64,000 bases of DNA, from assembly GCA_964005815.1 (NCBI GenBank), contig CAXFSR010000060.1, forward strand, positions 8,559-72,558, read 5' to 3'. The DNA comes from an uncultured Nitrospinaceae bacterium. Lineage in GTDB: Bacteria; UBA8248. Positions 4,353-25,344 of the stretch are shown piece after piece. The first letter of the stretch is position 1. Each line of letters starts with the position of its first letter. Below the pieces are notes generated by a model that made no database searches, was not told where the DNA came from, and was given only the letters and a program-made list of their open reading frames with translations. The translations under genes were made by a program, and so were the position numbers.

Positions 4353-5858
4353 TTAAAATAAACTTGAAGCGGAAAGTTTTGTGATATCAATAAAACTATC
4401 TGGGAAAAGACCAAGATAAAGGGTCATAGACAATAGAATGACCAAAGTAAAGATTAATGAGGAAGCACGGGAGAATTCAAAAGGAATGTCTGGGTCCTTT
4501 GCAGGTTCCATAAACATCACCATAATAACTCGTCCATAATAATACATAGAAATCGCACTTGTAAGTATCCCGATAACAGCCAACCAATAGAATTCATTTT
4601 GTATTGCCGCTGCGAAGAGATATAACTTTCCTACAAAACCTGCAGTTGGAGGTATCCCAGCCAATGAAAGAAGAAAAACCACGAAACACATACCGAACCA
4701 AGGATGGGACTGACCTAATCCACGCCAATCTTCAATCTGATCTCCTCTTTTGCCTTCTTGGCACATCCATATCAGCATTCCAAAAGCACCTAAATTTGTA
4801 AACAAATATATACCTAAATAAAACAGTACTGAACTTACATTAAAATCACTAAAAAGATATTTCCCATTATGAATTGTGAAACATGAAACAAAACCCATCA
4901 AAATATAACCGGCATGACTCATACTTGAATACGCAAGCATACGTTTTAGATTCTTCTGTGCAATTGCAGCAATATTACCCCAAACCATTGTCGCAGCAGT
5001 TAAAGCCCAAAAGAGAACAGTCCATCTTGTACTCATAGAAGGCAAGGCTATGACAAAAAGTCGGACTATAACTGCCACAGCTGCTGCCTTCACTGCAACA
5101 GACATAAATGCAGTTACAGATGTTGGAGCGCCTGTATATGCATCTGGTAGCCACATATGAAAAGGAGCTAGCGCCATTTTAAAAGCAAAACCGCCAACTA
5201 ATAATATAACTGACAAAATTAAAACTGGCTGAGATACTACTGCATTTACATTAGAACTAGAAAGAGCCTTAGCGATAGCAGTAAATGATGTTGAACCGGT
5301 GTAGCCGTAGAGTAATGCGATACCATACAACAAAATTCCAGACGCAAAAGCACCCATCAAAAAATATTTAAATCCTGCTTCTCTACTTAATACATCATTT
5401 CTCATAAATGCAACTAAAACATAAATACTTATACTCATAGTTTCTATACCAAGATATAGAGTCATTAGATCATTAGCTGAAACTAAAACTAGCATCCCAA
5501 AAACGGAAAACAAAAGCATGGCATAAAATTCACCATAATTAATTTTTTCAACTTTCAGATAATCAATCGACATTAAAACTGTAAGAGCAGCACAAACTAA
5601 AATAGTAGATTTTAAGAAAACACTAAAATTATCAACTATATAAAAATCACTAAAGGTAGTTTTTGGCCCAACACCCCACTGAGATAAAGTAAAATAAAGG
5701 ACTATAATTATTCCAATTAAACTAACTAAACCAACTAGAGATTTCTTCTCTAATGAAACAAATAGATCAAAAATAAGAACAAATCCTATAAGAATAGCAA
5801 GACTAATCTCAGGCAAGGCCAGTGAAAATAATATGTCTGGTATAACTACTTGCTGCAT
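4353..5858 (-). CDS. nuoN: NADH-quinone oxidoreductase subunit N (operon 2)
   Basis: EAGFKYF, FKMALAPFHMWLPD, KRMLAYSS, SLAGIPP; last gene of cluster. Confidence 0.95.
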   Translation of the reverse strand: MQQVVIPDILFSLALPEISLAILIGFVLIFDLFVSLEKKSLVGLVSLIGIIIVLYFTLSQWGVGPKTTFSDFYIVDNFSVFLKSTILVCAALTVLMSIDYLKVEKINYGEFYAMLLFSVFGMLVLVSANDLMTLYLGIETMSISIYVLVAFMRNDVLSREAGFKYFLMGAFASGILLYGIALLYGYTGSTSFTAIAKALSSSNVNAVVSQPVLILSVILLVGGFAFKMALAPFHMWLPDAYTGAPTSVTAFMSVAVKAAAVAVIVRLFVIALPSMSTRWTVLFWALTAATMVWGNIAAIAQKNLKRMLAYSSMSHAGYILMGFVSCFTIHNGKYLFSDFNVSSVLFYLGIYLFTNLGAFGMLIWMCQEGKRGDQIEDWRGLGQSHPWFGMCFVVFLLSLAGIPPTAGFVGKLYLFAAAIQNEFYWLAVIGILTSAISMYYYGRVIMVMFMEPAKDPDIPFEFSRASSLIFTLVILLSMTLYLGLFPDSFIDITKLSASSLF

Positions 5859-5887
5859 GATATTTAAGACTCCTATGGACTAAAATC

Positions 5888-7447
5888 TTAGTTTTTAGCA
5901 GAAACCTTTGAAATACGTTTTTGGATAATTGCAACGTTTTTACTCGTTTGATTCTGATCCACAATTTTCACAACTCTTTTAAGACTAGCCTCCATTTTAT
6001 TTATAAAAGGTTTAGGATAGAGACCAATCCAAAACATTAAAATAACTAAAGGAGCTAGATAAAGAATCTCTCTTAAATTACAATCTGGGATATTTTCATT
6101 TTTTGGATTTTCCAATTTCCCAAAAAATACTCTTTGAAATAACCAAAGCATATAAGCAGCACCAAGAACAATTCCAATCACAGCAAATGCCGCGTAAATA
6201 TAACTTTTCTTAAATGCACCAATAAGGATTAAAAACTCACCTACAAATCCATTTAACCCAGGTAGCCCTATACTACTTAACATAGTTATTGCAAAAATTA
6301 CGGTAAAAATTGGCATTTGCTTTGAGAGTCCGCCATATTCGGAAATTTCGCGTGTATGTCTTCTTTCATAAACAACTCCGACAAGTAAAAAGAGTGCGCC
6401 GGTACTAATACCATGATTTATCATTTGTAATTGACCACCTATTAGCCCCTGTTCATTTAACGCAAAAACTCCCAGCATAACAAATCCTAGATGACTGACT
6501 GATGAGTAAGCTACAAGCTTTTTAATGTCAGTTTGAGCCATCGCGACCAATGCTCCATATATAATTCCGATGATAGACAGAAGTACCATAAAAGGCACAA
6601 AAAGTTGCGTCGCCTCTGGAAGAAGAGGCAATACAAATCGAACAAAACCATATGTACCCATTTTCAATAGAATTCCAGCAAGAATTACACTACCGGCAGT
6701 CGGTGCCTCTACGTGCGCGTCAGGCAACCATGTATGAAAAGGAAACATTGGAACTTTGATAGCAAAACCAATGAAAAAGGCAAGGAAAATCCATACCTGT
6801 AAACTTAGTGGAATCTTTGGTCCCACAAGATACAATTCGGTTAGACTAAAAGTTAAAGAACCGGTTCCTGACTTCATATTAAAGAAATATAAAGCAAGGA
6901 TTCCTAGAAGCATTAAAACACTTCCGAAAAGCGTATAAAGAAAGAATTTTATTGCAGCATAGAGTTTTCTGGTTCCACCCCAAATACCAATCAAGAAATA
7001 CATCGGTACTAATGTAACTTCGAAGAAAACGTAAAACAGAAAGATATCAATTGCTAGAAATGTTCCAAGCATACCTGTTCCTAGCAAAAGCAAACAAACA
7101 TAATATTCTTTTTCACGTTCTTTAATAGCAGTAAAAGAACAAACAATAGAAATTAACATTGTTAACGTTGTTAGAAGAATCAAAAGTACACTAATCCCAT
7201 CTACTCCAAGATAATAACTGACACCAATTGATGGTATCCAGCTGACTTTTTCAACAAATTGAAATCCTGCCTCAGAGTCATTGAAGTTCGTCCATAAAGG
7301 AAGAGATATAAGAAAATCGAGAAATGCAACACCAGTAGCAAACATCTTGATTGTTTTCACTTGCTCTTTTTTTATAAAGAGCATAATAATAATTGCTCCC
7401 AGCAAAGGAAGAAAAATTATCAGCGAAAGAAGTGGAAGATTATTCAT
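5888..7447 (-). CDS. nuoM: NADH-quinone oxidoreductase subunit M (operon 2)
   Basis: IKVPMFPFHTWLPDAHVEAPTAGS, KKLVAYSSVSH, LPGLNGFVGE. Confidence 0.95.
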   Translation of the reverse strand: MNNLPLLSLIIFLPLLGAIIIMLFIKKEQVKTIKMFATGVAFLDFLISLPLWTNFNDSEAGFQFVEKVSWIPSIGVSYYLGVDGISVLLILLTTLTMLISIVCSFTAIKEREKEYYVCLLLLGTGMLGTFLAIDIFLFYVFFEVTLVPMYFLIGIWGGTRKLYAAIKFFLYTLFGSVLMLLGILALYFFNMKSGTGSLTFSLTELYLVGPKIPLSLQVWIFLAFFIGFAIKVPMFPFHTWLPDAHVEAPTAGSVILAGILLKMGTYGFVRFVLPLLPEATQLFVPFMVLLSIIGIIYGALVAMAQTDIKKLVAYSSVSHLGFVMLGVFALNEQGLIGGQLQMINHGISTGALFLLVGVVYERRHTREISEYGGLSKQMPIFTVIFAITMLSSIGLPGLNGFVGEFLILIGAFKKSYIYAAFAVIGIVLGAAYMLWLFQRVFFGKLENPKNENIPDCNLREILYLAPLVILMFWIGLYPKPFINKMEASLKRVVKIVDQNQTSKNVAIIQKRISKVSAKN

Positions 7448-7471
7448 AATATCTTAGACCCCCAAAACCTA

Positions 7472-9529
7472 CTATTGTAAAAGATAAGCACTTAACATTA
7501 AGAAAACACCTAAAAGCATTGCAAGCAAATAATTCTGAACCATTCCAGATTGTAAAAATTTAAAAACTTGACTAAAGAAACGAACAAAGTTCGCTACACC
7601 GTTCACTGCACCATCAACTGTCCTTATATCAAAAAGGGAAGACACTCGACTCGTTAAAACCGTTACAAATGTACTTCCATTTACAGCACCATCAACAACT
7701 TTAGCATCAAAATTCCACAAAAAACGCATCAATCTATAAATTGGCTCTACAATACATTTTTGATATAACTCGTCTACATAATACTTATTCAGTAAAATTT
7801 TATATAAACCTGGGAACTTTTGTTGTATTTGATCAGGCATGTTTGATTTTTTCCCATACATACTCCAAGCAATCACAATACCTCCAACAGCTATTATTAT
7901 AGCAAGTATAATTAAGTACATAGCTTCTGGTCCATGATGACCTCCGCTTTCTCCAGAAGCCGCATGAGCGGAAGAAATCAAATTAAAAGAAGAATGATGA
8001 GTCACATGAGACATTTTAGCGAGAGAAGGAGCTAGAAAATCATGAATCCACCCTTTTTCTGGTGGAAACCCGGGAATAATTCCTCCAAAAATACTCAAAA
8101 CTGCAAGTAAAATCAATGGTATTGTCATTGCGGGGGGAGATTCATGAATATGTTCCCTAGCATGAGTGTCTACTCTCATTTCTCCATGAAAAGTCATAAA
8201 AATCAGCCTAAACATATAAAAAGCAGTCATTAATGCTGCTATAGAACCAACTATCCATACAAAAGTATGTCCAGAGAAAAAAGCATTAGCCAAAATTTCA
8301 TCTTTACTCCAAAATCCTGCAAAAGGCGGAACGCCTGCTATTGCTATCGCACCGATTAGAAAAGTCCAATATGTTATTGGCATCTTAGATTTAAGACCAC
8401 CCATATATCTCATGTCTTGCTGTTGCTCTTCGGGAGCATGATGTAAAGCATGAATTACACTTCCACTTCCAAGAAACAAAAGACCTTTAAAAAATGCATG
8501 AGTCATAAGATGGAAAACACCTGCAGTAAATGCCCCAACCCCAAGCGCCATAAACATAAAACCTAATTGACTAACAGTACTATAAGCAAGCACACGTTTA
8601 ATATCATTTTGCACGAGACCTATAGATGCTGCAAAAATTGCTGTAAGTGCTCCTACAACAGCAATAACTTCTAAAGCCAAAGCTGCATCAACATATATAG
8701 GACTGGTTCTCGCAACCATATAAACGCCAGCCGTTACCATTGTAGCCGCATGAATTAGAGCACTAACGGGAGTAGGTCCTTCCATAGCATCAGGCAGCCA
8801 AACATAGAGAGGGATTTGAGCACTTTTTCCCATCGCACCAATAAAAAGCAGAAGTCCAATAATAGAAGCATAAGTAGTTTCAACACCAAGAACATTGATA
8901 TTTACGGCAAATTTCGATGTTGATTGCGACACTTCTTGGTAAGTGAGAGTATCTGCTAACATCCATATCAAAAACATTCCTAGTAAAAATCCAGCGTCTC
9001 CAATTCTGTTTACAATAAAGGCTTTTTTCCCTGCATCAGAAGCAGATTTTTTTTCATACCAAAAACCAATAAGCAAATAACTACATAAACCAACACCTTC
9101 CCATCCAACAAACATTACCAAATAGTTATCGCCAAGTACGAGGAGAAACATAGAAAGCATGAATAAATTGAGATATGTGAAAAATCTAGAGAATCCGGGA
9201 TCCCCATGCATATATCCAATTGAATAAAGATGAACCAAAAATCCAACTCCAGAAACAACTAAAAGCATAATTGTACTTAATGGATCTATAAGAAAACTTA
9301 GCGAAACACTAAAACTTCCTGCGTGAATCCATTCCCAGAGATGAACGGTATGTTTTCCACCAGCACCAAAAATCATTTCATTCGCAATGAAAATTACAAC
9401 CAACAGAGACAATCCTGCCATTAAAGTTGCTATATAACCGGATTTCTCCCCTAATCGTTTTCCAAAAATTCCATTAATTAGAACACCTACAACAGGGAAA
9501 AAAGGAATTAACCATGCATTTAAAATCAT
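7472..9529 (-). CDS. nuoL: NADH-quinone oxidoreductase subunit L (operon 2), with extended lateral helix
   Basis: GWEGVG, GKSAQ, WLPDAMEGPTPVSALIHAATMV, HAFFK; DGAVNG motif occurs twice, 26 aa apart. Confidence 0.95.
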   Translation of the reverse strand: MILNAWLIPFFPVVGVLINGIFGKRLGEKSGYIATLMAGLSLLVVIFIANEMIFGAGGKHTVHLWEWIHAGSFSVSLSFLIDPLSTIMLLVVSGVGFLVHLYSIGYMHGDPGFSRFFTYLNLFMLSMFLLVLGDNYLVMFVGWEGVGLCSYLLIGFWYEKKSASDAGKKAFIVNRIGDAGFLLGMFLIWMLADTLTYQEVSQSTSKFAVNINVLGVETTYASIIGLLLFIGAMGKSAQIPLYVWLPDAMEGPTPVSALIHAATMVTAGVYMVARTSPIYVDAALALEVIAVVGALTAIFAASIGLVQNDIKRVLAYSTVSQLGFMFMALGVGAFTAGVFHLMTHAFFKGLLFLGSGSVIHALHHAPEEQQQDMRYMGGLKSKMPITYWTFLIGAIAIAGVPPFAGFWSKDEILANAFFSGHTFVWIVGSIAALMTAFYMFRLIFMTFHGEMRVDTHAREHIHESPPAMTIPLILLAVLSIFGGIIPGFPPEKGWIHDFLAPSLAKMSHVTHHSSFNLISSAHAASGESGGHHGPEAMYLIILAIIIAVGGIVIAWSMYGKKSNMPDQIQQKFPGLYKILLNKYYVDELYQKCIVEPIYRLMRFLWNFDAKVVDGAVNGSTFVTVLTSRVSSLFDIRTVDGAVNGVANFVRFFSQVFKFLQSGMVQNYLLAMLLGVFLMLSAYLLQ

Positions 9530-9539
9530 TTCTAGTTAC

Positions 9540-9845
9540 CTACCATTTTAAAAGATTTACTTCATCAACATTCATAACAGTTTTATCACGATTCAACGAA
9601 ATCAAAATCGCCAATCCAACAGCAGCTTCACAGGCAGCAACGGCAATAACAAAAATCGCAAAAACTTGACCGGATAGATCCGCCCACTGTCTAGAAAAAC
9701 CAATTAAAGTAACATTTACCGCATTTAACATAAGTTCTATAGATAAGAGAATAATAATAGCGTTTCTTCTCATAAGAACACCTGCTGCACCAATAAGAAA
9801 AAGTACAGCTCCTAGAGTCAAAAAATGAGAAATAGGTATCATCAA
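9540..9845 (-). CDS. nuoK: NADH-quinone oxidoreductase subunit K (operon 2)
   Basis: IELMLNA, AACEAAVGLA. Confidence 0.95.
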   Translation of the reverse strand: MMIPISHFLTLGAVLFLIGAAGVLMRRNAIIILLSIELMLNAVNVTLIGFSRQWADLSGQVFAIFVIAVAACEAAVGLAILISLNRDKTVMNVDEVNLLKW

Positions 9846-9851
9846 AATCTC

Positions 9852-10361
9852 CTATGAATCTATTCTTTTCTTAGCAAGCACAATTGCACCAATCATGGCG
9901 GCTAACAAAAGAATAGAAACTACTTCGAACGGAAAAACAAATTTCGTATACAAAACGCTTCCCAATGCTTCTACATTTCCAGGGGTTGCTCCTAACTTCC
10001 AAGGCCATACTTTCATTGCGGGGAAAACTCCCTTACCAAGAACAGACCAAATTTCGAAACCCAAAATTAACACAATTAGAATCGCAAAAAATCGTTGTCT
10101 GTGCCATTGACGAATTCGTACTGCAACCTGAACATTCATTAACATAATCGAGAATAGGTACAGAACCATAATACCACCAGAATAAATAAGAACTTGAACA
10201 GCCGCAAGGAATTCAGCTCCAGCTAAGACAAAAAGTCCTGCCAAGAAGAAGAATGACAAAACTAATAAAAGAGCTGCATGAATTACATTAGACCTTGTAA
10301 TCATGAACAAAGATGTAATCACTATACCGGCAGAAAAAAGATAGAAAAATGGCAGTTCCAA
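9852..10361 (-). CDS. nuoJ: NADH-quinone oxidoreductase subunit J (operon 2)
   Basis: QVLIYSGGIMVL, FPFEVVSILLL.AMIGA. Confidence 0.95.
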   Translation of the reverse strand: MELPFFYLFSAGIVITSLFMITRSNVIHAALLLVLSFFFLAGLFVLAGAEFLAAVQVLIYSGGIMVLYLFSIMLMNVQVAVRIRQWHRQRFFAILIVLILGFEIWSVLGKGVFPAMKVWPWKLGATPGNVEALGSVLYTKFVFPFEVVSILLLAAMIGAIVLAKKRIDS

Positions 10362-10377
10362 ATGTAGCTCCTAAAAC

Positions 10378-11349
10378 TTATAAGAAAAGATACTTAATCA
10401 AACCAGTTAGAAAAATATTAATGAGTACAAGAGGAAACATAAATTTCCAACCAACACGCATCAATTGATCATATCGATATCTAGGCAATGTAGCTCTAAG
10501 CCAAATAAAAACAAAAATCATAGCGGCTAGCTTTAGCACAAACCATACAAAACCTGGTAAAGGAATTCCAGGAATTCCCATCCAACCACCAAAAAACAAC
10601 GTAATTCCAACGGTTGAAACAACCATAATATTTGCATACTCAGCTAGAAAGAAAAATGCGAACTTCATTCCACTGTATTCTGTATGAAAACCAGAAACGA
10701 GTTCCGTCTCAGCTTCAGGCAAATCAAAAGGGACACGATTAGTTTCCGCTAAAGCAGCAATGAAGAATACTATAAAAGCCAACGGTTGCGAGAATACAAA
10801 CCAACCTTCGGACTGTGCTTCAACAATTTTTTGCATATTTAGTGAACCCGCAAGCATCAAAGGACCGATGAGAGCAAAACCGAGAAAAATTTCGTAACTC
10901 AACATTTGCGCAGCACTTCTCAATGCACCTAGTAGACTATACTTACTGTTTGATGCCCAACCAGCCATAACAACTCCAAAAACACCTAGAGAACTTATAG
11001 CTAGAATCAAAAATAATCCAATATTTACTTGGGTAATATAGAAATTTTCACTAAAAGGTAAAACTGAATATACTACAAACGCGGGGACTAAAACCATGAT
11101 AGGAGCAAGGACAAAAACAACTTTGTCTGATTTTGCAGGAATTATATCTTCTTTCAAGAAAAGCTTAAGTCCATCGGCAATAGGCTGTAAAAGACCGTGC
11201 CAGCCTACTCGCATTGGACCCAATCGCATTTGTATGTGAGCAATAATTTTTCTCTCCAGATAGGTCAAATAAGCAACCACTAGAGAAACAACTAAAAGTA
11301 CTACTGCAATTTTAATAAACGCTATTAATGCCTCTGTTGCAATATCCAA
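10378..11349 (-). CDS. nuoH: NADH-quinone oxidoreductase subunit H (operon 2)
   Basis: [37 protein letters not shown]. Confidence 0.95.
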
Positions 11350-11370
11350 TGAAATAAACTCCCAAACAAA

Positions 11371-12513
11371 TTATCTATCACATTCCCCAAGTACGATATC
11401 TATGCTTCCAATAACGGCAACAACATCTGCAAGTAGACCTCCAACACACAATTTTTTTAGAGCAGCTAAATTTATAAATGACGGGGGTCTAATACGCACA
11501 CGATATGGTGTTTCTGTACCATCGCTAACTATATAGAATCCGAATTCTCCTTTAGGGTTTTCAATACTATGATATATTTCACCCTCTGGAGGCTTAATTG
11601 TTCTTGGTGTTTTACAGCTCACAGGTCCATCAGGTAATTGCTCTAAACACTGCTGTATGATTTTCACACTTTGCCTTAATTCTTCAATCCTAACGATATA
11701 CCTGTCATAAATATCTCCATTTTCGCCAGTAGGAACTACAAAATCTAAGTATGGATAGGCCGCATATGGTTTAGCCCTTCTCAAATCATAATTTACTCCA
11801 CTTGCTCTCAAGAGAGGACCAGACAAACCAAAATCAACTGCATCTTCACCTGAAATAACTCCCACTCCACGAGTACGTTGAAGCCAAATACGATTATTAG
11901 TCAAAAGTGTTTCATAATCTTGAATTCGACTGGGGAAAATATCGATAAACTCTTGTGCTAATGTCAAAAACTTTGCTGGAACATCTTGCTCCAATCCGCC
12001 TAAACGGAATGCATTCACAGTTAAACGACCACCAAACGCTGTTTCAAATAAATCAAGTACCATCTCCCTTTCTCTAAAGCACCATAGAAAAACTGTCATT
12101 GCTCCAATATCAAGAGCATGAGTAGCTAACCATAACAAATGACTAGCAATACGAGAAAATTCACCAACCATAGAACGTATATAGTTGGCTCGCATAGGAA
12201 TTTCCCAATCGAAAAATTTTTCAACTGCAGTTACCCATGCCAAATTATTAGAAGGAGCAGCTATATAATCCAAGCGGTCGGTATAAGGTATAAACATGGA
12301 ATAGGTTATATTTTCACCTATTTTTTCGGTACCTCTATGCAGGTATCCAATATCACAATCAAGATCTGTCACTGTTTCACCATCTAGATGAAGAATCACA
12401 CGAAGTACACCATGTGTACTAGGATGCTGGGGTCCCATATTTACTACAAGTTCCTCAGCTCCAGTAACAGTCTTTGTTTGAATTTCTGAATTTGTTTCTT
12501 CTATTTCATACAA
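11371..12513 (-). CDS. nuoD: NADH-quinone oxidoreductase subunit D (operon 2, short form)
   Basis: NMGPQHPSTHGVLR, GYLHRGTEK, DRLDY, ends DIVLGECDR. Confidence 0.95.
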   Translation of the reverse strand: MYEIEETNSEIQTKTVTGAEELVVNMGPQHPSTHGVLRVILHLDGETVTDLDCDIGYLHRGTEKIGENITYSMFIPYTDRLDYIAAPSNNLAWVTAVEKFFDWEIPMRANYIRSMVGEFSRIASHLLWLATHALDIGAMTVFLWCFREREMVLDLFETAFGGRLTVNAFRLGGLEQDVPAKFLTLAQEFIDIFPSRIQDYETLLTNNRIWLQRTRGVGVISGEDAVDFGLSGPLLRASGVNYDLRRAKPYAAYPYLDFVVPTGENGDIYDRYIVRIEELRQSVKIIQQCLEQLPDGPVSCKTPRTIKPPEGEIYHSIENPKGEFGFYIVSDGTETPYRVRIRPPSFINLAALKKLCVGGLLADVVAVIGSIDIVLGECDR

Positions 12514-12532
12514 ATTTCAAATCTCCTAATCA

Positions 12533-13126
12533 TTACTCTCCTATTTCCTTTCGTTGAGGCTTTTCATATACTCTCTCGCCTTTTCCTTCTATAGGGTAGC
12601 TTTTAAGCATTGGATGGCTCCCCCAATCATCAGGCAATAAAATTCTTCTCAAGTCAGGATGACCAGAAAAATCAATTCCAAAAAGATCAAAAACTTCCCG
12701 TTCCATCCAATTGGCACTAGACCAAAGATTGGATAATGTAGGAATGGATTGCTCTTCTTGTAATTTCACTTTTAAACGTACACGTCGATTTCTTTCAATG
12801 CTATATAGTTGGTATATTAAATGAAGGGGTAGATCGTCATCTGGATAATGCGTAGCTGTCAAATCAACAAGCATAGTGAACTTAAAGACTTCATCATCCC
12901 TAAGTAAAAGCGCAACTTCTTCTATGGAATCCGGTTTTATAGTAATACTAAGCTCATCCTCAAAATCACTAAATGCTTCAGCATCAAATGTAGACCCTGA
13001 AAATTTAGCCTCTAGAAAATCAAGGATATCCTTACCAACGTCTTCTTTCGAATCTTCCTCTGGGTTTTTTTCTGAGGTCTCTTCCTCTACCTCGGAATTC
13101 TCACCTTGAACTGACTCGTCTGCCAT
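12533..13126 (-). CDS. nuoC: NADH-quinone oxidoreductase subunit C (operon 2)
   Basis: ANWMEREVFDLFGIDFSGHPDLRRIL; acidic N-terminal extension. Confidence 0.95.
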   Translation of the reverse strand: MADESVQGENSEVEEETSEKNPEEDSKEDVGKDILDFLEAKFSGSTFDAEAFSDFEDELSITIKPDSIEEVALLLRDDEVFKFTMLVDLTATHYPDDDLPLHLIYQLYSIERNRRVRLKVKLQEEQSIPTLSNLWSSANWMEREVFDLFGIDFSGHPDLRRILLPDDWGSHPMLKSYPIEGKGERVYEKPQRKEIGE

Positions 13127-13155
13127 CTCATTCCTTAAAAGTTAATTTCTGAATC

Positions 13156-13632
13156 TTATTTGCGAATAAATTTCTCTTGTTCAATTTTTTTCTGTAACTG
13201 CATTACTCCCCACATAAGAGATTCCGGTCTGGGAGGACATCCAGGAATGTAAACATCAACGGGAATAATCTCATCTACCCCTTGCATTACTGCATAATTT
13301 GGATAAGGTCCACCACAAGTTGCGCAATTTCCCATAGCTATAACCCATCTTGGTTCAGGCATTTGATCATAAACTTTTCTAATTGCACTTCCCATTTTAT
13401 GAGTGACTGTTCCAGCAACTATAATTACATCTGATTGTCTTGGGGTAGCACGAAAAATTACTCCAAATCTATCAAAATCATACCTTGCCGCACCTGAAGC
13501 CATCATTTCAATCGCACAACAAGCAAGACCAAATGTCATCGGCCATAAAGCACTTTTCCTAGCCCAAGCAACAAGACTATCTACCTTGGAAGTAATAAAA
13601 TTGTCGTTAAATTTTCCTTCTACTACGCCCAT
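13156..13632 (-). CDS. nuoB: NADH-quinone oxidoreductase subunit B (operon 2)
   Basis: GLACCAIEM (N2 tandem Cys), MGNCA, PGCPP; ATG at 13632 overlaps the nuoA end. Confidence 0.95.
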
Positions 13633-14033
13633 TCCAGAGCTCCTTTTTTCCAAGCATAAAAGTATCCTACTAATAAAACTAAAATGAATAACATCATTTC
13701 GACAAAACCAAATAAACCTAAAGCATCATACTTAACTGCCCAAGGGAAAAGAAAAAGAGCTTCTACATCAAATAATAAAAACAAAATCCCTAATAGATAG
13801 AAGCGTACAGAGAACCTTTCATTCGCCTCCATTAATGGAGGAGAACCACATTCATATGCTGATAATTTCTCTGGATCTGGATTATTGGGTCTAATTAATA
13901 GAGCAATTAATAATGTTATGCCTGCAAACGCAAAAGCGAACATTACAAAAATAAAAATAGGCAAATAACCATTAATGAGTTGATAATCTCTAAAAAACAC
14001 ACTTAGAAATTCTGGCACAACAAAATCTTCCAA
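13623..14033 (-). CDS. nuoA: NADH-quinone oxidoreductase subunit A (operon 2)
   Basis: YECG, LFDVE, KGALEW. Confidence 0.93.
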
Positions 14034-14086
14034 AAAAATAAAAAAATCGTTTGTAAAAAAGTTCAGAATTAAAATCTACAAAAATT

Positions 14087-14115
14087 TTTATACCATGCTA
14101 TTGATTCTAAACCAA
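14087..14115 (-). promoter_or_regulatory. Putative extended -10 promoter for nuo operon 2
   Basis: Minus strand TTGGTT-17 bp-TATAAA with TG immediately upstream (TGgTATAAA), in the 92-bp gap between the operons. Confidence 0.45.
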
Positions 14116-14125
14116 GTCCAAGCTA

Positions 14126-15610
14126 TCAATTCAAGGAAATATTTGAGCTCAAGGCAAAATCCAAAAAGAAAGATGGAAAGACGCCTAAACTCAATGTTCC
14201 AATTACACATATAACTAATGCAACTACAGCATAAGATAATCTAGACCCCCATACAAATATGAACTGCTCTTTTTTTACATCTTCTACAGGGTCATTCATA
14301 TACATTACAACAATTACTCTTAAATAATAAAATACCGAAACTACGCTATTTAAAACAGCAATAATAGCGAGCCAAACAAAGTCTGACTTTATAGCAGCGC
14401 TAAAAATATAAAATTTTGCAACAAATCCACCTGTTGGAGGAATTCCCGCCAATGCAATCATAAAGATTGCCATGGATAATGCTAATCCTGGTCGAGTTAA
14501 ACCTAACCCAGAGAATTCTTCTATAAGTATTCTTTCTTTTCCATCTTCCTTTTTCGCAAGCATTACGACAGCAAATGCGCCTATATTCATAAATGTGTAA
14601 ACAAATACATAGAAGAGAAAACTAGCAGAGGATAAGGTCCCAGCTTGTTTAATTGTGACTAATGCAATGAGTAAATAACCAGCATGGGCAATACTGGAAT
14701 AAGCAAGCATTCTTTTAATATTTGTCTGCCATATAGCTACAAGATTTCCTAAAGTCATAGTTAATACTGCAATTATCCATATTGTTATCTCAATTTTATT
14801 GGCAGAAAAACCAGAGGAGGCAATAAAAACACGGAACAGCGCTGCAAATGCGGCTACTTTTGGACCTACAGACATAAAAGCAGTAGCAACAGTAGGAGAG
14901 CCTTGATATACATCCGGAGTCCACATATAAAATGGGAAAGCTCCTATTTTAAATCCAAAACCAACAATAATAAGACTGAGCCCCAAAAAGAACACTAACT
15001 TTTGGGAAGAAACTTCATATAATTTGATAATTTCAAAAAGATCTGTAGACCCTGTTGATCCATAAATAAGCGCTATACCAAAAAGTAAAAATCCCGAAGC
15101 AAAAGAACCTAACAGAAAGTACTTCAAAGAAGCTTCATTTCCAATAGAACTAGAACGGAAAAAACCAGCTAGGACATAGAGGGAAAGTGAAAAAATCTCT
15201 AGAGCAATAAAAATCATTACAAGATTTCTTGTCGATACCATAAGCATCATTCCTAGTGTTGCAAAAAGTATCAGCCCTAAAAAATCCCCATATGAGTTTT
15301 CTTCAAATTTTCTCTCCATCGAAGAAATTAAAACAACTAAAAAACTTGAAAAAAGAATTATAAGAAAAAGAGTTCTTGTAAAACCATCAAACAAATACAT
15401 TCCGCCAAAAGAAATTTTGGTGGTTTCCGGACTTGAAAGCAAACATGAGACAAATGTGGTCAACAAAACTATAATAGACAACCAAAACGTGATTTTTCGA
15501 TTTTTATCAGAGGTAAAAATATCGAAAAGTAGAACCATGACAGCGCCAAAAGTTAGAATTGGTATAGGTAGAAAGCTTTTCCAAAAAATTACAGGAAAAA
15601 TAAATTCCAT
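14126..15610 (-). CDS. nuoN: NADH-quinone oxidoreductase subunit N (operon 1)
   Basis: EASLKYF, FKIGAFPFYMWTPDVY, KRMLAYSS. Confidence 0.95.
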   Translation of the reverse strand: MEFIFPVIFWKSFLPIPILTFGAVMVLLFDIFTSDKNRKITFWLSIIVLLTTFVSCLLSSPETTKISFGGMYLFDGFTRTLFLIILFSSFLVVLISSMERKFEENSYGDFLGLILFATLGMMLMVSTRNLVMIFIALEIFSLSLYVLAGFFRSSSIGNEASLKYFLLGSFASGFLLFGIALIYGSTGSTDLFEIIKLYEVSSQKLVFFLGLSLIIVGFGFKIGAFPFYMWTPDVYQGSPTVATAFMSVGPKVAAFAALFRVFIASSGFSANKIEITIWIIAVLTMTLGNLVAIWQTNIKRMLAYSSIAHAGYLLIALVTIKQAGTLSSASFLFYVFVYTFMNIGAFAVVMLAKKEDGKERILIEEFSGLGLTRPGLALSMAIFMIALAGIPPTGGFVAKFYIFSAAIKSDFVWLAIIAVLNSVVSVFYYLRVIVVMYMNDPVEDVKKEQFIFVWGSRLSYAVVALVICVIGTLSLGVFPSFFLDFALSSNISLN

Positions 15611-17160
15611 TACTGACCTCCTCTAGTAGTAATTGAAGATGAAACTAGTCGAGGTTTAATATTTTTTGTCTCTTTTGCAACAAGTTTGCGCCCTTTAATT
15701 TTAAGAAGCAAAGATTTTGTAGAAGGTTCGATTATCTTAAGTATTGGCTTTGGATAAATACCTAACAAAAAAACTAAGAAAATCATCGGCACCAACACAA
15801 ACCATTCGCGAAGATTTAGGTCAGTTAAAATCTTATTAGCTTCTATTCTTATTTTTCCAAATATCACCTTCTGCACCATGGGCAACATGTAGACAGCGGA
15901 AAGAACAACACCAATAGTTGCTATTATCGTGGGGATAAAGTGTGATTGGAAAGAGCCAGACAAAATGGCAAATTCTCCTACAAAACCGTTTAATCCAGGA
16001 AGTCCAATACTACTGAAAACAGTAATCACAAAAAAAACAGAAAAAGCAGGCATCACTTTTGCGATCCCACCAAAATCATCTATCAAACGTGTATGTCTTC
16101 TTCTATAGAGCATGCCAACCATCAAGAAAAGTAGTCCGCTACAAATACCATGGTTGACCATCTGCAAAACACTTCCACCAAGAGCTAAGAGATTAAATGA
16201 AAAAAGCCCGAACATAACAAATCCTAAATGACTTATAGAGGAATAGGCTACAAGTTTTTTTGCATCCCTTTGAATCATAGCCATCAATCCACCATAAATA
16301 ATGCCAACCAACGAAAGAAAAACAAAAAGAGGTGAAAACACAATAGCAGCTTCGGGAAAAAGTGGAATTGCTAGTCTTATGAAACCGTAAGTACCCATTT
16401 TCAAAAGAACACCAGCAAGAATTACACTCCCTGCTGTTGGCGCCTCTACATGTGCATCAGGCAACCAGGTATGAAAAGGGAACATTGGCACCTTGATTGC
16501 AAAAGCTATTGCAAACGCAACAAAAAGCCATGTCTGGAGTAAAGGGTCAACAGGAGAATTTAAGAAAACTAAAATATTAAAAGTCCCAACACCAGTTGCA
16601 AAATATAGCCATAAAATTGCAATAAGCATCAAAACACTTCCGGCCATTGTATATAGGAAAAATTTCATTGCAGAGTAAATTCTTTTCTTCCCACCCCAAA
16701 TTCCAATAATGAAATACATTGGAATTAGCATAGCTTCCCAGAACACATAAAAAAGAAAAAAATCTAAAGAAACAAAAACACCTAACATCGCGGTTTCAAG
16801 AAGAAGCATAGAGAAATAATACAAACGAATGCGTTTCTTGATATCATCCCAAGAAAACAACAAGACTATTGGAGTTAAAAAAGTCGTAAGTAGAATTAAC
16901 GGGAGACTAATTCCATCCAACCCAACTCTATAAGAAACCCCCATAGAATCTATCCATTTAAAATTCTCTACAAATTGCATTTCTGGAGATGATTGAAAAT
17001 TTACAAAAATTACCAATGAAAAAAGAAAAGAAACTAGACTAGAAATTATCGCAATAAGAAAAATTTTTTTACATTGCTTTTCGTTTTTATCCCCAAAAAA
17101 CAAAATAAAAAAAGCACCAATTAAGGGAGAAAAAACCATCCAGCTAATAACAGGAAACAA
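15610..17160 (-). CDS. nuoM: NADH-quinone oxidoreductase subunit M (operon 1)
   Basis: FWEAMLIPM, IKVPMFPFHTWLPDAHVEAP. Confidence 0.95.
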   Translation of the reverse strand: MFPVISWMVFSPLIGAFFILFFGDKNEKQCKKIFLIAIISSLVSFLFSLVIFVNFQSSPEMQFVENFKWIDSMGVSYRVGLDGISLPLILLTTFLTPIVLLFSWDDIKKRIRLYYFSMLLLETAMLGVFVSLDFFLFYVFWEAMLIPMYFIIGIWGGKKRIYSAMKFFLYTMAGSVLMLIAILWLYFATGVGTFNILVFLNSPVDPLLQTWLFVAFAIAFAIKVPMFPFHTWLPDAHVEAPTAGSVILAGVLLKMGTYGFIRLAIPLFPEAAIVFSPLFVFLSLVGIIYGGLMAMIQRDAKKLVAYSSISHLGFVMFGLFSFNLLALGGSVLQMVNHGICSGLLFLMVGMLYRRRHTRLIDDFGGIAKVMPAFSVFFVITVFSSIGLPGLNGFVGEFAILSGSFQSHFIPTIIATIGVVLSAVYMLPMVQKVIFGKIRIEANKILTDLNLREWFVLVPMIFLVFLLGIYPKPILKIIEPSTKSLLLKIKGRKLVAKETKNIKPRLVSSSITTRGGQ

Positions 17161-17173
17161 GACAAAACCCTTT

Positions 17174-19102
17174 TTAAAATCTATTTGAAAAATTAAAAAC
17201 CATCAATAAAATAATACACACTAAGCCAAACAAAATAGATACTGCATATGTTTTAACGTATCCATCTTGTAAAAAACGCAGCGTTAATCCTAGAGACTTA
17301 ACCAATCGACCAGTACCATTCACTGTTGCATCAATTACGTTTTGCTCAAAAAGCTTGAAAAACAAACTTGCAATAGTTCTTAATGGACGTACCAGAATGA
17401 AATCATAAATTTCATCAATATAATATTTATTTTCAAGAAGAGAATAAATACTTACATTGAGTGTTGATGTACTAGGAAGAATTTGTCGTTTTTTGCAACA
17501 GGTTTGATAAGCTAGGAAAATACCTAATAAAGCAACACCAAGAGATAAAAACATTAAGACAAGTTCTAAAGTTAAATTATGATGTAGTTCCACCGAACCT
17601 GATGGACTCAATGCTGAGGAAAGAAATTCAGCAAAAACATTTCCCCCTGATATAATTGGGATACCTACCCATCCTCCCACAATAGAGAAAAAAGCAAGAA
17701 CAAATAATGGGAAAATCATAATCGGTGGCGATTCGTGTACATGTATTTTATTTTCGTTGAAATTTTTATCTCCATAAAAAACCTTAAATACCAGTCTAAA
17801 GGTATAGTAAGAAGTCATTAAAGCACCTAATATCCCCGCAAACCAAAAAAGATTAGAGAAAGAACCACTTGTAAAAGCGGAAAACAAAATTGCATCCTTA
17901 CTAAAAAATCCTGCTAAAGGAAAAACTCCTGAAATTGCCAGAGAACCAATCAAGAAAACAAAACTAGTTTTGGGGATATCAGATTTTATTCCCCCCATTT
18001 TTTCAATATCTTGTTCCCCATCCATTGCATGAATTACACTTCCCGCACCAAGAAAAAGCAAAGCCTTAAAAAAAGCATGAGTCATAAGATGAAACATTGC
18101 TGTTGCATAAGCTCCAAGACCGCAAGCTAAAAACATATAGCCTAGCTGACTTAAAGTACTGTATGCTAAAATTTTTTTAATATCTTTCTGAACCAGTGCA
18201 ATAGAAGCCGCAAATAATAAAGTGAAAGTTCCTATAATCGCTATGATCATAAGAGTCGATGGCGCAAGGCTAAACAGAACATCGTTTCGAACAAGCAAAT
18301 AAATCCCTGCAGTTACCATAGTTGCCGCGTGTATGAGAGCACTTACAGGCGTAGGACCCTCCATGGCATCCGGAAGCCATACATGAAGTGGAAACTGTGC
18401 ACTTTTTCCAGCTGCTCCCAAAAATAAAAAGAGACATAATAAATTTACATTAAGGCTATCTTTGACGAATAGTTCGGATGCACTTTTAGAAATATCTGTA
18501 AAATCAAATGTTCCAAAGACAGTTAGAATATAAAATAAGGCAATAAGAAAACAGAAATCTCCAACTCTATTTACTATGAATGCTTTTTTCCCAGCCTCTG
18601 TAGCAGAAGGTTTTTCATACCAAAACCCGATAAGTAAATAACTACACAAACCTACTGCTTCCCAACCAACAAACATCAATAAAAAATTATCAGCCAACAC
18701 TAGTAATAACATAGAAAAAGAAAAAAGATTCAAATAAATGAAATAACGAACAATACCCAAATCTTCACGCATGTATGCGACAGAATAAATATGAACCATG
18801 AATCCGACACCAGTAATAATTAAAGTCATAATAGAAGATATCGGATCAATCACAAATCCAATTTTAATTATCAAATTCCCAATAGGGATCCAATTAAAAA
18901 GAAATATAGAAACGATTCTATCTTGCGGACTTTGGGATAAAAAACTAAAGAATAGAAATAGAGAAACTAGAAACGATAACAATATTGCTGTGGAAGCTAT
19001 CCAACCAGATAATGACTCTTTTTTCCCTTTCCCCAACAACAGAAGATTTGCGAACAAACCCAAAAGCGGGAAAAAAAGTATCAAGAGAATTAATTTGCTC
19101 AT
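17174..19102 (-). CDS. nuoL: NADH-quinone oxidoreductase subunit L (operon 1)
   Basis: WLPDAMEGPTPVSALIHAATMV; single IDATVNG helix motif. Confidence 0.95.
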   Translation of the reverse strand: MSKLILLILFFPLLGLFANLLLLGKGKKESLSGWIASTAILLSFLVSLFLFFSFLSQSPQDRIVSIFLFNWIPIGNLIIKIGFVIDPISSIMTLIITGVGFMVHIYSVAYMREDLGIVRYFIYLNLFSFSMLLLVLADNFLLMFVGWEAVGLCSYLLIGFWYEKPSATEAGKKAFIVNRVGDFCFLIALFYILTVFGTFDFTDISKSASELFVKDSLNVNLLCLFLFLGAAGKSAQFPLHVWLPDAMEGPTPVSALIHAATMVTAGIYLLVRNDVLFSLAPSTLMIIAIIGTFTLLFAASIALVQKDIKKILAYSTLSQLGYMFLACGLGAYATAMFHLMTHAFFKALLFLGAGSVIHAMDGEQDIEKMGGIKSDIPKTSFVFLIGSLAISGVFPLAGFFSKDAILFSAFTSGSFSNLFWFAGILGALMTSYYTFRLVFKVFYGDKNFNENKIHVHESPPIMIFPLFVLAFFSIVGGWVGIPIISGGNVFAEFLSSALSPSGSVELHHNLTLELVLMFLSLGVALLGIFLAYQTCCKKRQILPSTSTLNVSIYSLLENKYYIDEIYDFILVRPLRTIASLFFKLFEQNVIDATVNGTGRLVKSLGLTLRFLQDGYVKTYAVSILFGLVCIILLMVFNFSNRF

Positions 19103-19103
19103 A

Positions 19104-19406
19104 TTAAAATTTCAACAAATTGACTTCGTCAAGGTCAGTAGATTCTCGATTCCTGTATATCATTACAACAATCGCCAAACCTATCGCCGCTTCTGCAGCA
19201 GCTACAGCCATAACAAAAAAAACAATTAGTTGTCCATCCATAGAATTTAAAAAATATCCATAACTAACAAAGGCAAGATTTGCACCACTCATCATAAGTT
19301 CAATACATAAAATAACAACTATTACACTCCGTCTTACAATTACGCCAATAACACCCAACGTAAAAAGAATTGAACTAAGAAAAAGATAATTTTCTAAAGG
19401 TACCAT
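19104..19406 (-). CDS. nuoK: NADH-quinone oxidoreductase subunit K (operon 1)
   Basis: IELMM, AAAEAAIGLA. Confidence 0.95.
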   Translation of the reverse strand: MVPLENYLFLSSILFTLGVIGVIVRRSVIVVILCIELMMSGANLAFVSYGYFLNSMDGQLIVFFVMAVAAAEAAIGLAIVVMIYRNRESTDLDEVNLLKF

Positions 19407-19423
19407 ACGTCTTCATCCCAAAA

Positions 19424-19942
19424 TTAACGACTTTTTTTTCTTCCTAAAACAACTGCTCCAATGATGCCGACAAAAAGAAGGACTCCCATTGTTTGAAATG
19501 GCAAAAGATATTTCGATAGCAAAAACTGTCCTATTAACTGTGTGTTTCCAACTTCATTAATAAATTGCGGAGTGAAAACTCCCTTGATTTGAGGAGAAAT
19601 ACTCATATCTTTCAAAACGATTATTAAGACCAAAAATACAAATAAACCAAAAACAATCCCCAGTAGTTTCTGGAAAGGAATTTTTAAATCCTTTTTTTCC
19701 TCTTTGTCTAAATTTATAAGCATAATGACGAATAAGAAAAGCATCATTATTGCACTTGCATAAACAATAATTTGAACTATCGCAACAAATTGGGCGTTTA
19801 AAGATAAGAATAATCCAGCAAGACCAAGGAAAGTTACTATCAAACTAAAAACACAATACATGGGATTAGGCAAAGCAACAACTGAAACTGCGCCGACTGT
19901 GGTTACTATTGCCAAGAAATAAAAAACTAAAGTTGATGCCAT
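19424..19942 (-). CDS. nuoJ: NADH-quinone oxidoreductase subunit J (operon 1)
   Basis: QIIVYASAIMMLFLFVIML; position in operon. Confidence 0.93.
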   Translation of the reverse strand: MASTLVFYFLAIVTTVGAVSVVALPNPMYCVFSLIVTFLGLAGLFLSLNAQFVAIVQIIVYASAIMMLFLFVIMLINLDKEEKKDLKIPFQKLLGIVFGLFVFLVLIIVLKDMSISPQIKGVFTPQFINEVGNTQLIGQFLLSKYLLPFQTMGVLLFVGIIGAVVLGRKKSR

Positions 19943-19954
19943 AAATCATAAACC

Positions 19955-20434
19955 TTATAAATAGGTAAGAAGTTTTTCTTCAGGATAGCGGTTTTTTAAT
20001 TCAGGATAATCTTCGTTCCGTTTTACTAAAAAATCTTCTTTTTCATATAAAAATTTACTTCTGTCATCCGCACAAAATTCGTATTCATTGCTAAGAACAA
20101 TTGCACCAACCGGACATGCTTCTTCACAATATCCACAAAAAATACATCTCAGTTCATTGATCTCATAAACAGAAGCATACCGCTCTCCTTTAGAAACAGG
20201 GGAACTAGACTCATTCTCTTCAGACTCAACATAAATACAATCTACTGGACAAGCTGCAGAACAAAGTTTACATCCTACACAACGTTCAAGACCGTCTTCC
20301 CATCGAAGTAATTTGTGTAAACCTCTATATCCTATTGGCATACTTTCTTTTTGCTCTGGATATTGAACAGTCTCACGGCTTTTCCAGGAATGTTTCAGAG
20401 TAAGCCAAAGACCTCTAAAAATAGCAGTAAACAT
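19955..20434 (-). CDS. nuoI: NADH-quinone oxidoreductase subunit I (operon 1)
   Basis: TVQYPE; two 4Fe-4S motifs CVGCKLCSAACP and CIFCGYCEEACP. Confidence 0.97.
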   Translation of the reverse strand: MFTAIFRGLWLTLKHSWKSRETVQYPEQKESMPIGYRGLHKLLRWEDGLERCVGCKLCSAACPVDCIYVESEENESSSPVSKGERYASVYEINELRCIFCGYCEEACPVGAIVLSNEYEFCADDRSKFLYEKEDFLVKRNEDYPELKNRYPEEKLLTYL

Positions 20435-20458
20435 TGAAATCCCTCTATTTTCTGAAAT

Positions 20459-21442
20459 TTACAAATTAAAAAAAGTAATAGCTCCTGCAGTTACTATCGC
20501 ATTTAAAATCGAGACAGGAAGTAAAATCTTCCAACCAAAATCCATCAATTGATCGTATCTCAATCTTGGCGTAGTTGCTCTTAACCACATAAAGAAAAAC
20601 ATGAAAGCAATTACCTTTATTAAAAACCAAACAACTGGAGGCAAAAACGGACCTCTCCATCCTCCCAAAAAGAAAGTAGCACCAACTGCTGAAAGAGTAA
20701 TCATATTGCAGTATTCAGCAAGAAAATATACTGCAAAATGCATACTACTATACTCAGTGTGAAAGCCTCCTGTTAATTCACTTTCAGCCTCAGGCAAATC
20801 AAATGGAGCACGATTCGTCTCTGCTAACATACAAATCACAAACAAAACAAATCCAAGAGGCTGTAAAATAATGAAAGGTAATTCAGATTGTGCATCAACA
20901 ATTCCTTTCAAACTTAATGTTTCAGATAACATCACTACACCAAGAAGTGACAATCCTAATGACAATTCATAACTAATTAGCTGGGCTGCAGAACGAAGTC
21001 CCCCAAGCAAAGGGTATTTACTATTAGAAGACCAGGAACCAAGAACAATTCCGTATACACCCAGTCCACTTAGAGCAAAAATATATAGTATGCCAATATT
21101 TACATCAGCCAAAAACAAATCAATCTGATAGCCAAAAATCTCAACCTGATCTCCAAACGGAATAACTGCAATAGAAGATAACGCTGGAATAAGCGTCAGA
21201 GTAGGAGCTAAAATAAAAACAATTTTATTTGCATCTGCCGGAATCAAAGTTTCTTTGAACATTAGTTTTATTCCATCCGCAATTGGCTGCAGTAGACCCG
21301 CAGGACCAACCCGATTTGGTCCTACTCGAACTTGAACTAAGGCAAAAACTCTCCTTTCCATCCAAGTCATATACGCCGCAAGAATTAACAAGACAGTAAA
21401 AACTACAATCACTTTTATTAAAATTACACCGGCAATCGCCAT
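20459..21442 (-). CDS. nuoH: NADH-quinone oxidoreductase subunit H (operon 1)
   Basis: [31 protein letters not shown]. Confidence 0.95.
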   Translation of the reverse strand: MAIAGVILIKVIVVFTVLLILAAYMTWMERRVFALVQVRVGPNRVGPAGLLQPIADGIKLMFKETLIPADANKIVFILAPTLTLIPALSSIAVIPFGDQVEIFGYQIDLFLADVNIGILYIFALSGLGVYGIVLGSWSSNSKYPLLGGLRSAAQLISYELSLGLSLLGVVMLSETLSLKGIVDAQSELPFIILQPLGFVLFVICMLAETNRAPFDLPEAESELTGGFHTEYSSMHFAVYFLAEYCNMITLSAVGATFFLGGWRGPFLPPVVWFLIKVIAFMFFFMWLRATTPRLRYDQLMDFGWKILLPVSILNAIVTAGAITFFNL

Positions 21443-21454
21443 TTTTTTAAATCC

Positions 21455-23998: not shown

Positions 23999-24023
23999 AC
24001 TGAATCTCCAATACTAATTTTAA

Positions 24024-25325: not shown

Positions 25326-25344
25326 AATTTAATCCATAAAAAAA

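Follow-up and report, generated by a model that had tools for sequence, protein, structure and literature searches.

The 64,000-nt window analyzed in this study (the whole stretch of contig CAXFSR010000060.1 under consideration, from an uncultured Nitrospinaceae bacterium) carries two complex I-like nuo operons in tandem. Operon 1 is a complete nuoA–nuoN set, whereas operon 2 comprises ten genes and lacks nuoE, nuoF, nuoG and nuoI; subunits are numbered here by operon, such that NuoI1 belongs to operon 1 and NuoD2 to operon 2. Within the complex I superfamily, NuoI is considered a core subunit of universal occurrence, and in headless complexes, i.e. those without NuoEFG, it is the presumed point of entry of ferredoxin electrons. 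The reading that we favor, tentatively and at somewhat less than an even chance, is that operon 2 provides a second membrane arm and quinone module (Q-module) that takes its NuoI from operon 1. According to this reading, NuoI produced from operon 1, which lies 92 nt upstream on the same strand, would complete the operon 2 complex; electrons would pass via the two 4Fe-4S clusters of NuoI to cluster N2 in NuoB2 and from there to menaquinone at the NuoD2/NuoH2 site, or take the opposite direction, and proton pumping would be coupled to this transfer. The parts of this scheme that we infer are the need for NuoI at all, its identity as NuoI1, the electron donor and the co-transcription of the two operons.

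Gene content and redox core of operon 2

The list of open reading frames (ORFs) and a Pfam scan place both operons on the minus strand, with operon 1 (28662..14126) followed by 92 nt and then by operon 2 (14033..4353). The gene order of operon 2 is nuoA-B-C-D-H-J-K-L-M-N, with essentially full-length Pfam matches at E-values of 1e-29 to 1e-129. The D–H gap is 21 nt, the H–J gap is 16 nt and every other gap is at most 29 nt, which leaves no space for nuoE, nuoF, nuoG or nuoI. A first-pass annotation of this DNA had described the same ten-gene order, the gaps of 21 and 16 bp and the lack of room for nuoEFG or nuoI, and every detail holds. The features concerned are as follows.

14126..28662, minus strand: operon 1, nuoABCDEFGHIJKLMN; Pfam scan of 14 ORFs, gaps of −31 to 49 nt
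19955..20434, minus strand: nuoI1 (159 amino acids), the sole NuoI of the window and the candidate shared subunit; Pfam Fer4 families
14034..14125, minus strand: nuoN1–nuoA2 spacer of 92 nt, the gap between the operons
13623..14033, minus strand: nuoA2 (136 amino acids); Pfam Oxidored_q4, 1.1e-38; 45% identity to NuoA1
13156..13653, minus strand: nuoB2 (165 amino acids), carrier of cluster N2; Pfam Oxidored_q6, 6e-30
12533..13126, minus strand: nuoC2 (197 amino acids), with an acidic N-terminal tail; Pfam Complex1_30kDa, 1.3e-42; 30% identity to NuoC1
11371..12513, minus strand: nuoD2 (380 amino acids), a 'short NuoD'; Pfam Complex1_49kDa, 9.7e-104, in two stretches
10378..11349, minus strand: nuoH2 (323 amino acids); Pfam NADHdh, 1.2e-129
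9852..10361, minus strand: nuoJ2 (169 amino acids); Pfam Oxidored_q3, 2.3e-40
9540..9845, minus strand: nuoK2 (101 amino acids); Pfam Oxidored_q2, 1.9e-29
7472..9529, minus strand: nuoL2 (685 amino acids); Pfam Proton_antipo_M, 3.1e-84, and Proton_antipo_N, 1.3e-23
5888..7447, minus strand: nuoM2 (519 amino acids); Pfam Proton_antipo_M, 3.5e-81; 54% identity to NuoM1
4353..5858, minus strand: nuoN2 (501 amino acids); Pfam Proton_antipo_M, 9e-77

Within the window, the Pfam scan finds nuoE, nuoF and nuoG in operon 1 only. When the 64 kb were searched in all six frames for the motif CxxCxxCxxxC, two matches emerged, both in the NuoI ORF of operon 1 (19955–20434), and the window has no second pair of ferredoxin motifs. 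A NuoI hidden in operon 2, whether in a gap, in another frame or in a fusion, was considered and rejected: the gaps do not exceed 29 nt, the flanking proteins are of normal size and there is no cysteine-rich segment. No extra cysteine-rich module was seen in any of the ten proteins (NuoC2, NuoH2 and NuoJ2 contain no cysteine, and NuoA2 and NuoK2 contain one each), and no candidate substitute gene for nuoI lies inside operon 2 or adjoining it. The membrane arm is complete, in that A, H, J, K and the three antiporter-like subunits L, M and N all give full-length Pfam matches; only Nuo families were matched in operon 2, with no MrpE/F/G-type subunits, so that it does not qualify as a complex of the Mrp antiporter or Mbh-Mbx type.

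As judged from its sequence, operon 2 is an old paralogue and not a fresh copy shorn of genes. The counterparts in the two operons share 30–55% amino-acid identity, which, together with the placement of NuoD2 in a different clade, rules out that operon 1 was duplicated recently and that the copy then suffered deletions. Selection was gauged against L072, a contig of an uncultured Nitrospinaceae metagenome-assembled genome (MAG), which shares about 98–100% amino-acid identity with the window in A2, B2 and D2 and 87% in C2. The ratio of nonsynonymous to synonymous substitution rates (dN/dS) was 0.024 for A2, 0.009 for B2, 0.174 for C2 and 0.025 for D2, a range similar to that of eight operon 1 genes (0.036–0.140). 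These low values (0.009–0.17) indicate that operon 2 is under purifying selection and rule out its decay, which the first-pass annotation had named as a sign that would speak against its proposal.

The redox core is also intact. Cys45, Cys46, Cys110 and Cys139 of NuoB2 are invariant and align with the cluster-ligand cysteines of solved NuoB/PSST chains; we take them to be the ligands of cluster N2. All 19 aligned sequences share His34 and Tyr83 of NuoD2, which correspond to residues 38 and 87 of the Thermus chain 2fug_4. These two are presumably the quinone head-group ligands, with His34 in the β1–β2 loop. Two further features of the module were noted. NuoB2 has an extra cysteine, Cys113, three residues past Cys110 (motif C-A-T-C-G-G) and at the predicted NuoI interface; all four B2 copies that adjoin C2–D2 have it (the window, L072, L028 and L075), whereas it is absent from the other 11 NuoB sequences of the clade in which the motif can be read. 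NuoC2 begins with a strongly acidic tail of ∼35 residues. Operon 2 thus appears to encode a functional second version of ten complex I subunits, comprising the membrane arm A, H, J, K, L, M and N and the quinone module B, C and D.

A clade of short NuoD proteins with repeated loss of nuoI

A stretch of 25 residues that precedes the C-terminal PxGE..Y block in NuoD1 and in canonical 49-kDa subunits is missing from NuoD2 (alignment columns 313–337) and from 17 of 17 aligned clade relatives. The partner touched by this stretch is possibly NuoG, in which case the deletion would tie the clade structurally to the headless form. The best solved matches to NuoD2 are 49-kDa subunits of complex I (E-values of 1e-119 to 1e-77), with MbhL and the Mbs subunit matching more weakly (1e-51 to 1e-65); since both MbhL and the NuoD-like chain of Mbs can be aligned to NuoD2 without a break, the short NuoD may be the older state. 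Among the best 120 relatives of NuoD2, lengths are 353–393 residues, mostly 377–380, with one fragment of 308 residues; many of those of the same size are 73–97% identical, and the named ones are labelled Nitrospinota, Tectomicrobia, Acidobacteria or Schekmanbacteria.

The clade was located in genomes using a degenerate DNA pattern that spans the site of the deletion (K-x-P-[RK]-x-[ILV]-K-x-x-x-G-[ED]-x-Y) and matches once in the window, inside nuoD2, and not at all in 100 shuffles. The genome scan gave at least 120 loci from 120 different isolates, and 101 of those listed are Acidobacteriota. The flanks of 80 of these loci were surveyed by labelling ORFs with phmmer against the 24 Nuo proteins of the window. 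The presence of nuoI could be judged in 71 loci; the other nine, including both Nitrospinota-type loci, end too early.

A nuoI gene lies between nuoH and nuoJ in 33 of the 71 evaluable loci and is absent from 38. The first-pass annotation, which had proposed a comparison of gene order in relatives, thus missed how common such I-less operons are. The I-bearing loci consist of seven of Firmicutes/Deltaproteobacteria type, with nuoABCDHIJKLMN or as much of it as the contig covers, and 26 that are Acidobacteriota or unclassified, many of them with nuoCDHIJKLMN and with nuoA/nuoB 4–7.5 kb upstream or out of view. In I-less loci, nuoJ starts 1003–1519 nt past the end of nuoD (median 1192 nt; 34 loci with a nuoJ call), an interval filled by nuoH; in I-bearing loci the same interval measures 1419–3897 nt (29 loci), and in the window 1009 nt. 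All I-less loci of the survey are Acidobacteriota except L004, a contig labelled as a Bifidobacterium breve MAG that carries an Acidobacteria-type nuoA-C-D-H-K-L and whose NuoD nests within Acidobacteriota. This public entry has probably been misbinned.

The I-less loci lack more than nuoI: 37 of the 38 are also without nuoB between nuoA and nuoC, and the upstream part of the remaining one is not covered. Because nuoB carries cluster N2 and is indispensable, NuoB would have to be supplied in trans in these 37 loci, so that the absence of a gene from such an operon does not imply that the complex lacks the subunit. The supply of Fe-S subunits in trans must presumably be routine in the short NuoD clade.

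Other variations were observed at these loci. In most of the Terriglobales-type I-less loci with a listed gap (L002, L006, L008, L017, L018, L031 and others), a conserved ORF of ∼105 residues occupies the place of nuoB between nuoA and nuoC; it occurs in about 18 of the 28 loci with a listed nuoA–nuoC gap, and one of three tested copies gave a weak match to bPH_2, a bacterial PH domain (1.4e-5). In the Vicinamibacterales loci L014, L055, L023 and L040, NuoC bears a Pro/Ala/Lys-rich N-terminal extension of at least 100 residues. The Pyrinomonadaceae-type loci L024, L052 and L064 have nuoA–nuoB 4–7.5 kb upstream of nuoCDHIJKLMN, and their NuoB has a C-terminal extension of ∼50 residues that is missing in both NuoB1 and NuoB2 of the window.

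Matches to nuoE, nuoF and nuoG were absent from 79 of the 80 loci, and in the remaining one, L072, the match is that of operon 1; the clade is therefore headless by neighborhood. The modular complex I with an 'exchangeable input head' put forward in the first-pass annotation goes beyond these data, in which there is also no sign of NuoEFG docking on the operon 2 module. Operon 2 would descend from a headless, NuoEFG-free short NuoD lineage with the ancestral operon nuoABCDHIJKLMN, and such a descent implies that its electron donor is probably something other than NADH, for example ferredoxin.

The distribution of nuoI was examined on a FastTree tree of 78 NuoD rows, namely 66 of the 80 loci (those with one intact ORF of 340–480 residues each; the other 14 were dropped), ten database proteins, NuoD2 and NuoD1 as the outgroup. 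The I-less rows fall into three well-supported groups: the Vicinamibacterales (support of 100), the Nitrospinota group including the window (99) and part of the Terriglobales, the sister group of which keeps nuoI. At least three changes of nuoI state are needed on this tree (59 rows of known state). An IQ-TREE tree of 37 chosen rows recovered the same groups with different deep branching, and constraining the I-less rows to a single clade costs 119 log-likelihood units (approximately unbiased test, p-AU = 8e-73), in a test for which the group was named after the tree had been seen and the five Nitrospinota database proteins, of unknown neighborhood, were assumed to be I-less. This rejection indicates that the loss of nuoI is recurrent. 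In the Nitrospinota lineage, operon 2 appears to have lost its own nuoI independently of the Acidobacterial loss.

Possible sources of NuoI for operon 2

The first-pass annotation had offered three ways in which operon 2 could receive electrons, among which the borrowing of NuoI from the neighboring operon is the best supported, albeit by indirect evidence; it draws on the tandem layout, the lack of a detectable terminator, a structural model that may owe its success to memory and a remodelled, conserved NuoD2 surface. Two related loci, L072 and L028, extend across the junction, and both show the tandem layout, with nuoA2-B2-C2-D2 coming after nuoN1. The spacer of L072 is 91 nt long and nearly identical to the 92 nt of the window; in L028, the NuoD2 of which is 83% identical to that of the window, tblastn places nuoA2 about 165–190 nt past nuoN1. 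In two further relatives, among the best 120 matches listed, a NuoI1 orthologue and a NuoD2 orthologue were assigned to one contig by its shared size (95,088 and 63,048). The NuoI1 orthologue P0125 (82% identity) lies on a 2.9-Mb contig, and no such large contig occurs among the best 120 NuoD2-type clusters, so that operon 2 may be absent from some close relatives and may be an accessory feature.

No terminator-like or promoter-like consensus was found in the 92-nt spacer, and it has no significant hairpin, its fold being no better than that of shuffled sequence (z = 0.13; equalled or surpassed by 108 of 200 shuffles). The spacer is consistent with read-through from operon 1, and the two operons are probably co-transcribed.

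A model of NuoI1 with NuoB2 and NuoD2 gave an ipSAE (interaction prediction score from aligned errors) of 0.84, compared with 0.62 for the best of three controls, the one with NuoD2 replaced. It passes a mark that two of 215 mismatched pairs attain, compared with 116 of 157 solved complexes; contact agreement between runs was at least 93%, and the predicted local distance difference test (pLDDT) score of the partner was at least 81. The first-pass annotation had suggested modelling NuoI1 against NuoB2, NuoD2 and NuoH2, and the model with NuoB2 and NuoD2 thus gives a pass. However, complex I has been solved many times, and the pass may reflect memory; it shows likeness and not binding by this copy, and the model does not tell NuoI1 from another NuoI.

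At the NuoD positions predicted to face NuoI, conservation is no lower than over the remaining positions, with 0.914 versus 0.880 in the Nitrospinota, 0.844 versus 0.825 in the I-less Acidobacteriota and 0.895 versus 0.836 in the I-bearing Acidobacteriota; for the I-less lineages, this suggests that the surface is still in use. In the Nitrospinota it has also been altered: R69I, K154D, H167N, Y179P and E199D occur at a frequency of 1.00 and G181K at 0.60. Agreement with I-bearing relatives at the NuoI-facing positions is 0.59 in the Nitrospinota (0.67 at the rest) and 0.82 in the Acidobacterial I-less loci (0.68 at the rest), a contrast for which a permutation test over the 22 positions gave p = 0.025. 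A surface that is remodelled and yet conserved, as predicted from the model, fits a change of NuoI partner in the Nitrospinota.

Several points weigh against the sharing of NuoI1. The contact residues (30 on B2 and 22 on D2) come from the model and not from a structure, and the permutation result rests on only these 22 positions. The contact residues are not enriched in identities between the paralogues, with 16 of 30 identical between B2 and B1 (0.53, compared with 0.55 overall) and nine of 22 between D2 and D1 (0.41, compared with 0.50 overall), and among the Nitrospinota-specific changes in D2 only E199D matches D1; there is thus no sign of both Q-modules converging on one NuoI. The NuoB interface gives no signal either (0.63, compared with 0.60 for the rest, against Pyrinomonadaceae NuoB). 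The NuoI proteins of I-bearing clade operons, which keep all eight cysteines, are only 29–37% identical to NuoI1 (33 sequences), and NuoI1 would therefore be a foreign partner for the operon 2 module. A promoter could lie in the spacer, which is AT-rich. Finally, the absence of a NuoI other than NuoI1 holds for the 64 kb of the window, and a second nuoI may lie elsewhere in the genome.

The strongest competitor, which we consider rather less likely, is that a dedicated NuoI is encoded elsewhere, either as a relocated copy of the clade type or as that of a third nuo set. Operon 2 would then specify a headless complex of the usual 11 subunits, one of whose genes has moved away. In the clade, nuo genes are often scattered, as seen in seven loci with nuoA–nuoB or nuoB 4–7.5 kb upstream of nuoCDHIJKLMN, and the second nuo set of cultured Nitrospinia is scattered and has its own nuoI, according to the portions of the reports available to us (PMC3578206; PMC10839748). 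The agreement of 0.82 at NuoI-facing residues of Acidobacterial I-less NuoD, compared with 0.68 elsewhere, also fits the same type of NuoI being encoded at another site in those genomes. Against this stand the changed NuoI-facing surface of Nitrospinota NuoD2 relative to relatives with their own nuoI, the nuo layouts published for Nitrospinota classes, which differ from that of the window as far as the accessible text of these sources goes, and the failure of a displaced nuoI to turn up in searches that were weak, being confined to the best 120 matches to NuoI1 and the best 120 to P0270. The best 120 relatives of NuoI1 are of the canonical type only, and the two NuoI types are so far apart that this search could not have listed a clade-type NuoI. 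A profile of the clade-type NuoI was compared with 50% representatives (best 150 matches, without taxonomy), from which P0270, a clade-type NuoI of an Acidobacteria MAG, was taken as the most low-GC-like candidate; among its best 120 relatives, none is named Nitrospinota and none is tied to the contigs of NuoD2 relatives. A NuoI named Sulfotelmatobacter is of the canonical type, being 53% identical to the NuoI1 orthologue of L072 (itself 99% identical to NuoI1) and at most 34% identical to Acidobacterial clade-type NuoIs; the Sulfotelmatobacter loci L006, L034 and L051 are all I-less, and L041 ends before nuoJ.

It is less probable still, and in our view doubtful, that the operon 2 complex has no NuoI and that N2 in NuoB2 exchanges electrons directly with a soluble low-potential carrier such as a ferredoxin, or with another redox protein, docked on the NuoI-facing surface. 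The remodelling of the predicted NuoI-facing surface of NuoD2, which is nevertheless fixed in the clade, would suit such a partner, as would Cys113 of NuoB2 near the N2 ligand Cys110 at the predicted interface and the strongly acidic N-terminal tail of NuoC2. However, operon 2 has no candidate substitute gene in it or beside it, and the Acidobacterial relatives without nuoB, explicable only by supply in trans, caution against equating the absence of a gene with that of its subunit. To our knowledge, moreover, all characterized members of the complex I/group 4 hydrogenase superfamily with a NuoB/NuoD module have a NuoI homologue. In a milder version, NuoI (and in Acidobacteria also NuoB) would, if this is true, be a shared and separately encoded Fe-S cassette that serves several paralogous membrane arms.

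It is very improbable that operon 2 is a relic without function, or that it arose as an artefact of assembly or binning, since nothing beyond the missing gene speaks for it and the dN/dS values, the ten intact ORFs with full-length Pfam matches, the wide conservation of the family and the recurrence of the same junction in two independent assemblies all speak against it.

Genomic setting and comparison with known complexes

Outside the two operons, the window contains genes for menaquinone synthesis.

57961–62530: MqnC and MqnE (futalosine route), flanking an amidase-like gene
56667–57950: aminofutalosine-deaminase-family hydrolase

The presence of MqnC and MqnE makes menaquinone the likely quinone of both complexes. 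Three other observations concern the surroundings. The window also holds sugar-acid, CoA-transferase and transporter genes of heterotrophic appearance. An NfuA-like Fe-S biogenesis protein (102 residues) is encoded at 30823–31131 on the plus strand, ∼2.2 kb upstream of operon 1 and opposite to it. A 250-residue ORF at 32416–33168 on the minus strand matches the nitrile hydratase α subunit and an NHLP leader-peptide domain, with no β subunit recognized adjoining it.

The closest known relatives in gene content are the headless nuoABCDHIJKLMN operons of Firmicutes and Deltaproteobacteria, such as those of Desulfosporosinus (L012) and Syntrophus (L016). They belong to the same short NuoD clade, have no nuoEFG nearby and carry the other ten genes in the same order. 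Unlike operon 2, they keep nuoI between nuoH and nuoJ (7/7), which bears out the claim of the first-pass annotation that headless 11-subunit operons normally retain this gene, and the best match of their NuoB is NuoB1 rather than NuoB2. The Acidobacterial operons of the form nuoACDHJKLMN share with operon 2 the short NuoD clade and the lack of nuoI between nuoH and nuoJ, but nuoB is also missing from them (37/38) and there is no complete nuo operon within 10 kb. In the accessible part of an earlier study, this gene set is mentioned in passing and its gaps are ascribed to MAG incompleteness (Hausmann et al., bioRxiv 10.1101/197269).

Within the phylum, the second complex I-like set, NUO-2, of Nitrospina gracilis and other Nitrospinia is described as consisting of nuoACHIJKLMN and nuoEGD with separate nuoB and nuoF, all scattered, and has been proposed to link quinol and ferredoxin (PMC3578206; PMC10839748). 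In those accounts, as far as their available text goes, it resembles operon 2 in being a second set in the same phylum and differs in having its own nuoI and modified NuoF/G and in being scattered instead of in tandem. The same sources, again in the text available, give NUO-1 as nuoA–M with nuoN apart and the layout of class UBA7883 as nuoFGABCDHIJKLMN, and one UBA9942 MAG is stated to have all nuo genes doubled except nuoEFG (PMC3578206; PMC10839748). A tandem like that of the window is not among the nuo layouts published for Nitrospinota in these portions of the literature. The sharing of a subunit between duplicate complex I sets has been suggested for Chloroflexus aurantiacus, in which the missing subunit is NuoG (PMC3150298); on the evidence of the part of that paper at hand, the idea is the same, with one peripheral subunit serving two paralogous sets, but it concerns NuoG and not NuoI. 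The literature search returned no mention of the gene order nuoABCDHJKLMN, nor of Nitrospinae together with nuoEFG. Subunit sharing, again of a subunit other than NuoI, has also been proposed for the complex I isoforms of Aquifex aeolicus, a case that did not appear in the literature searched.

Judged by gene order and sequence comparison, operon 2 belongs to a wider pattern that has barely been noted before, that of nuo operons without the genes for their Fe-S subunits. The I-less operons are conserved, are under purifying selection, have arisen repeatedly and account for roughly half of a single large clade. In genome-based metabolic annotation, such operons are scored as incomplete or are put down to assembly gaps. 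Either it is routine for Fe-S subunits to be shared or to have their genes away from those of the membrane arm, or some complexes do without NuoI. If sharing is true, these operons would show how isoforms of complex I are assembled and regulated; if instead there is no NuoI, operon 2 would encode a minimal ten-subunit redox-driven pump and the accepted minimal architecture of complex I would change.

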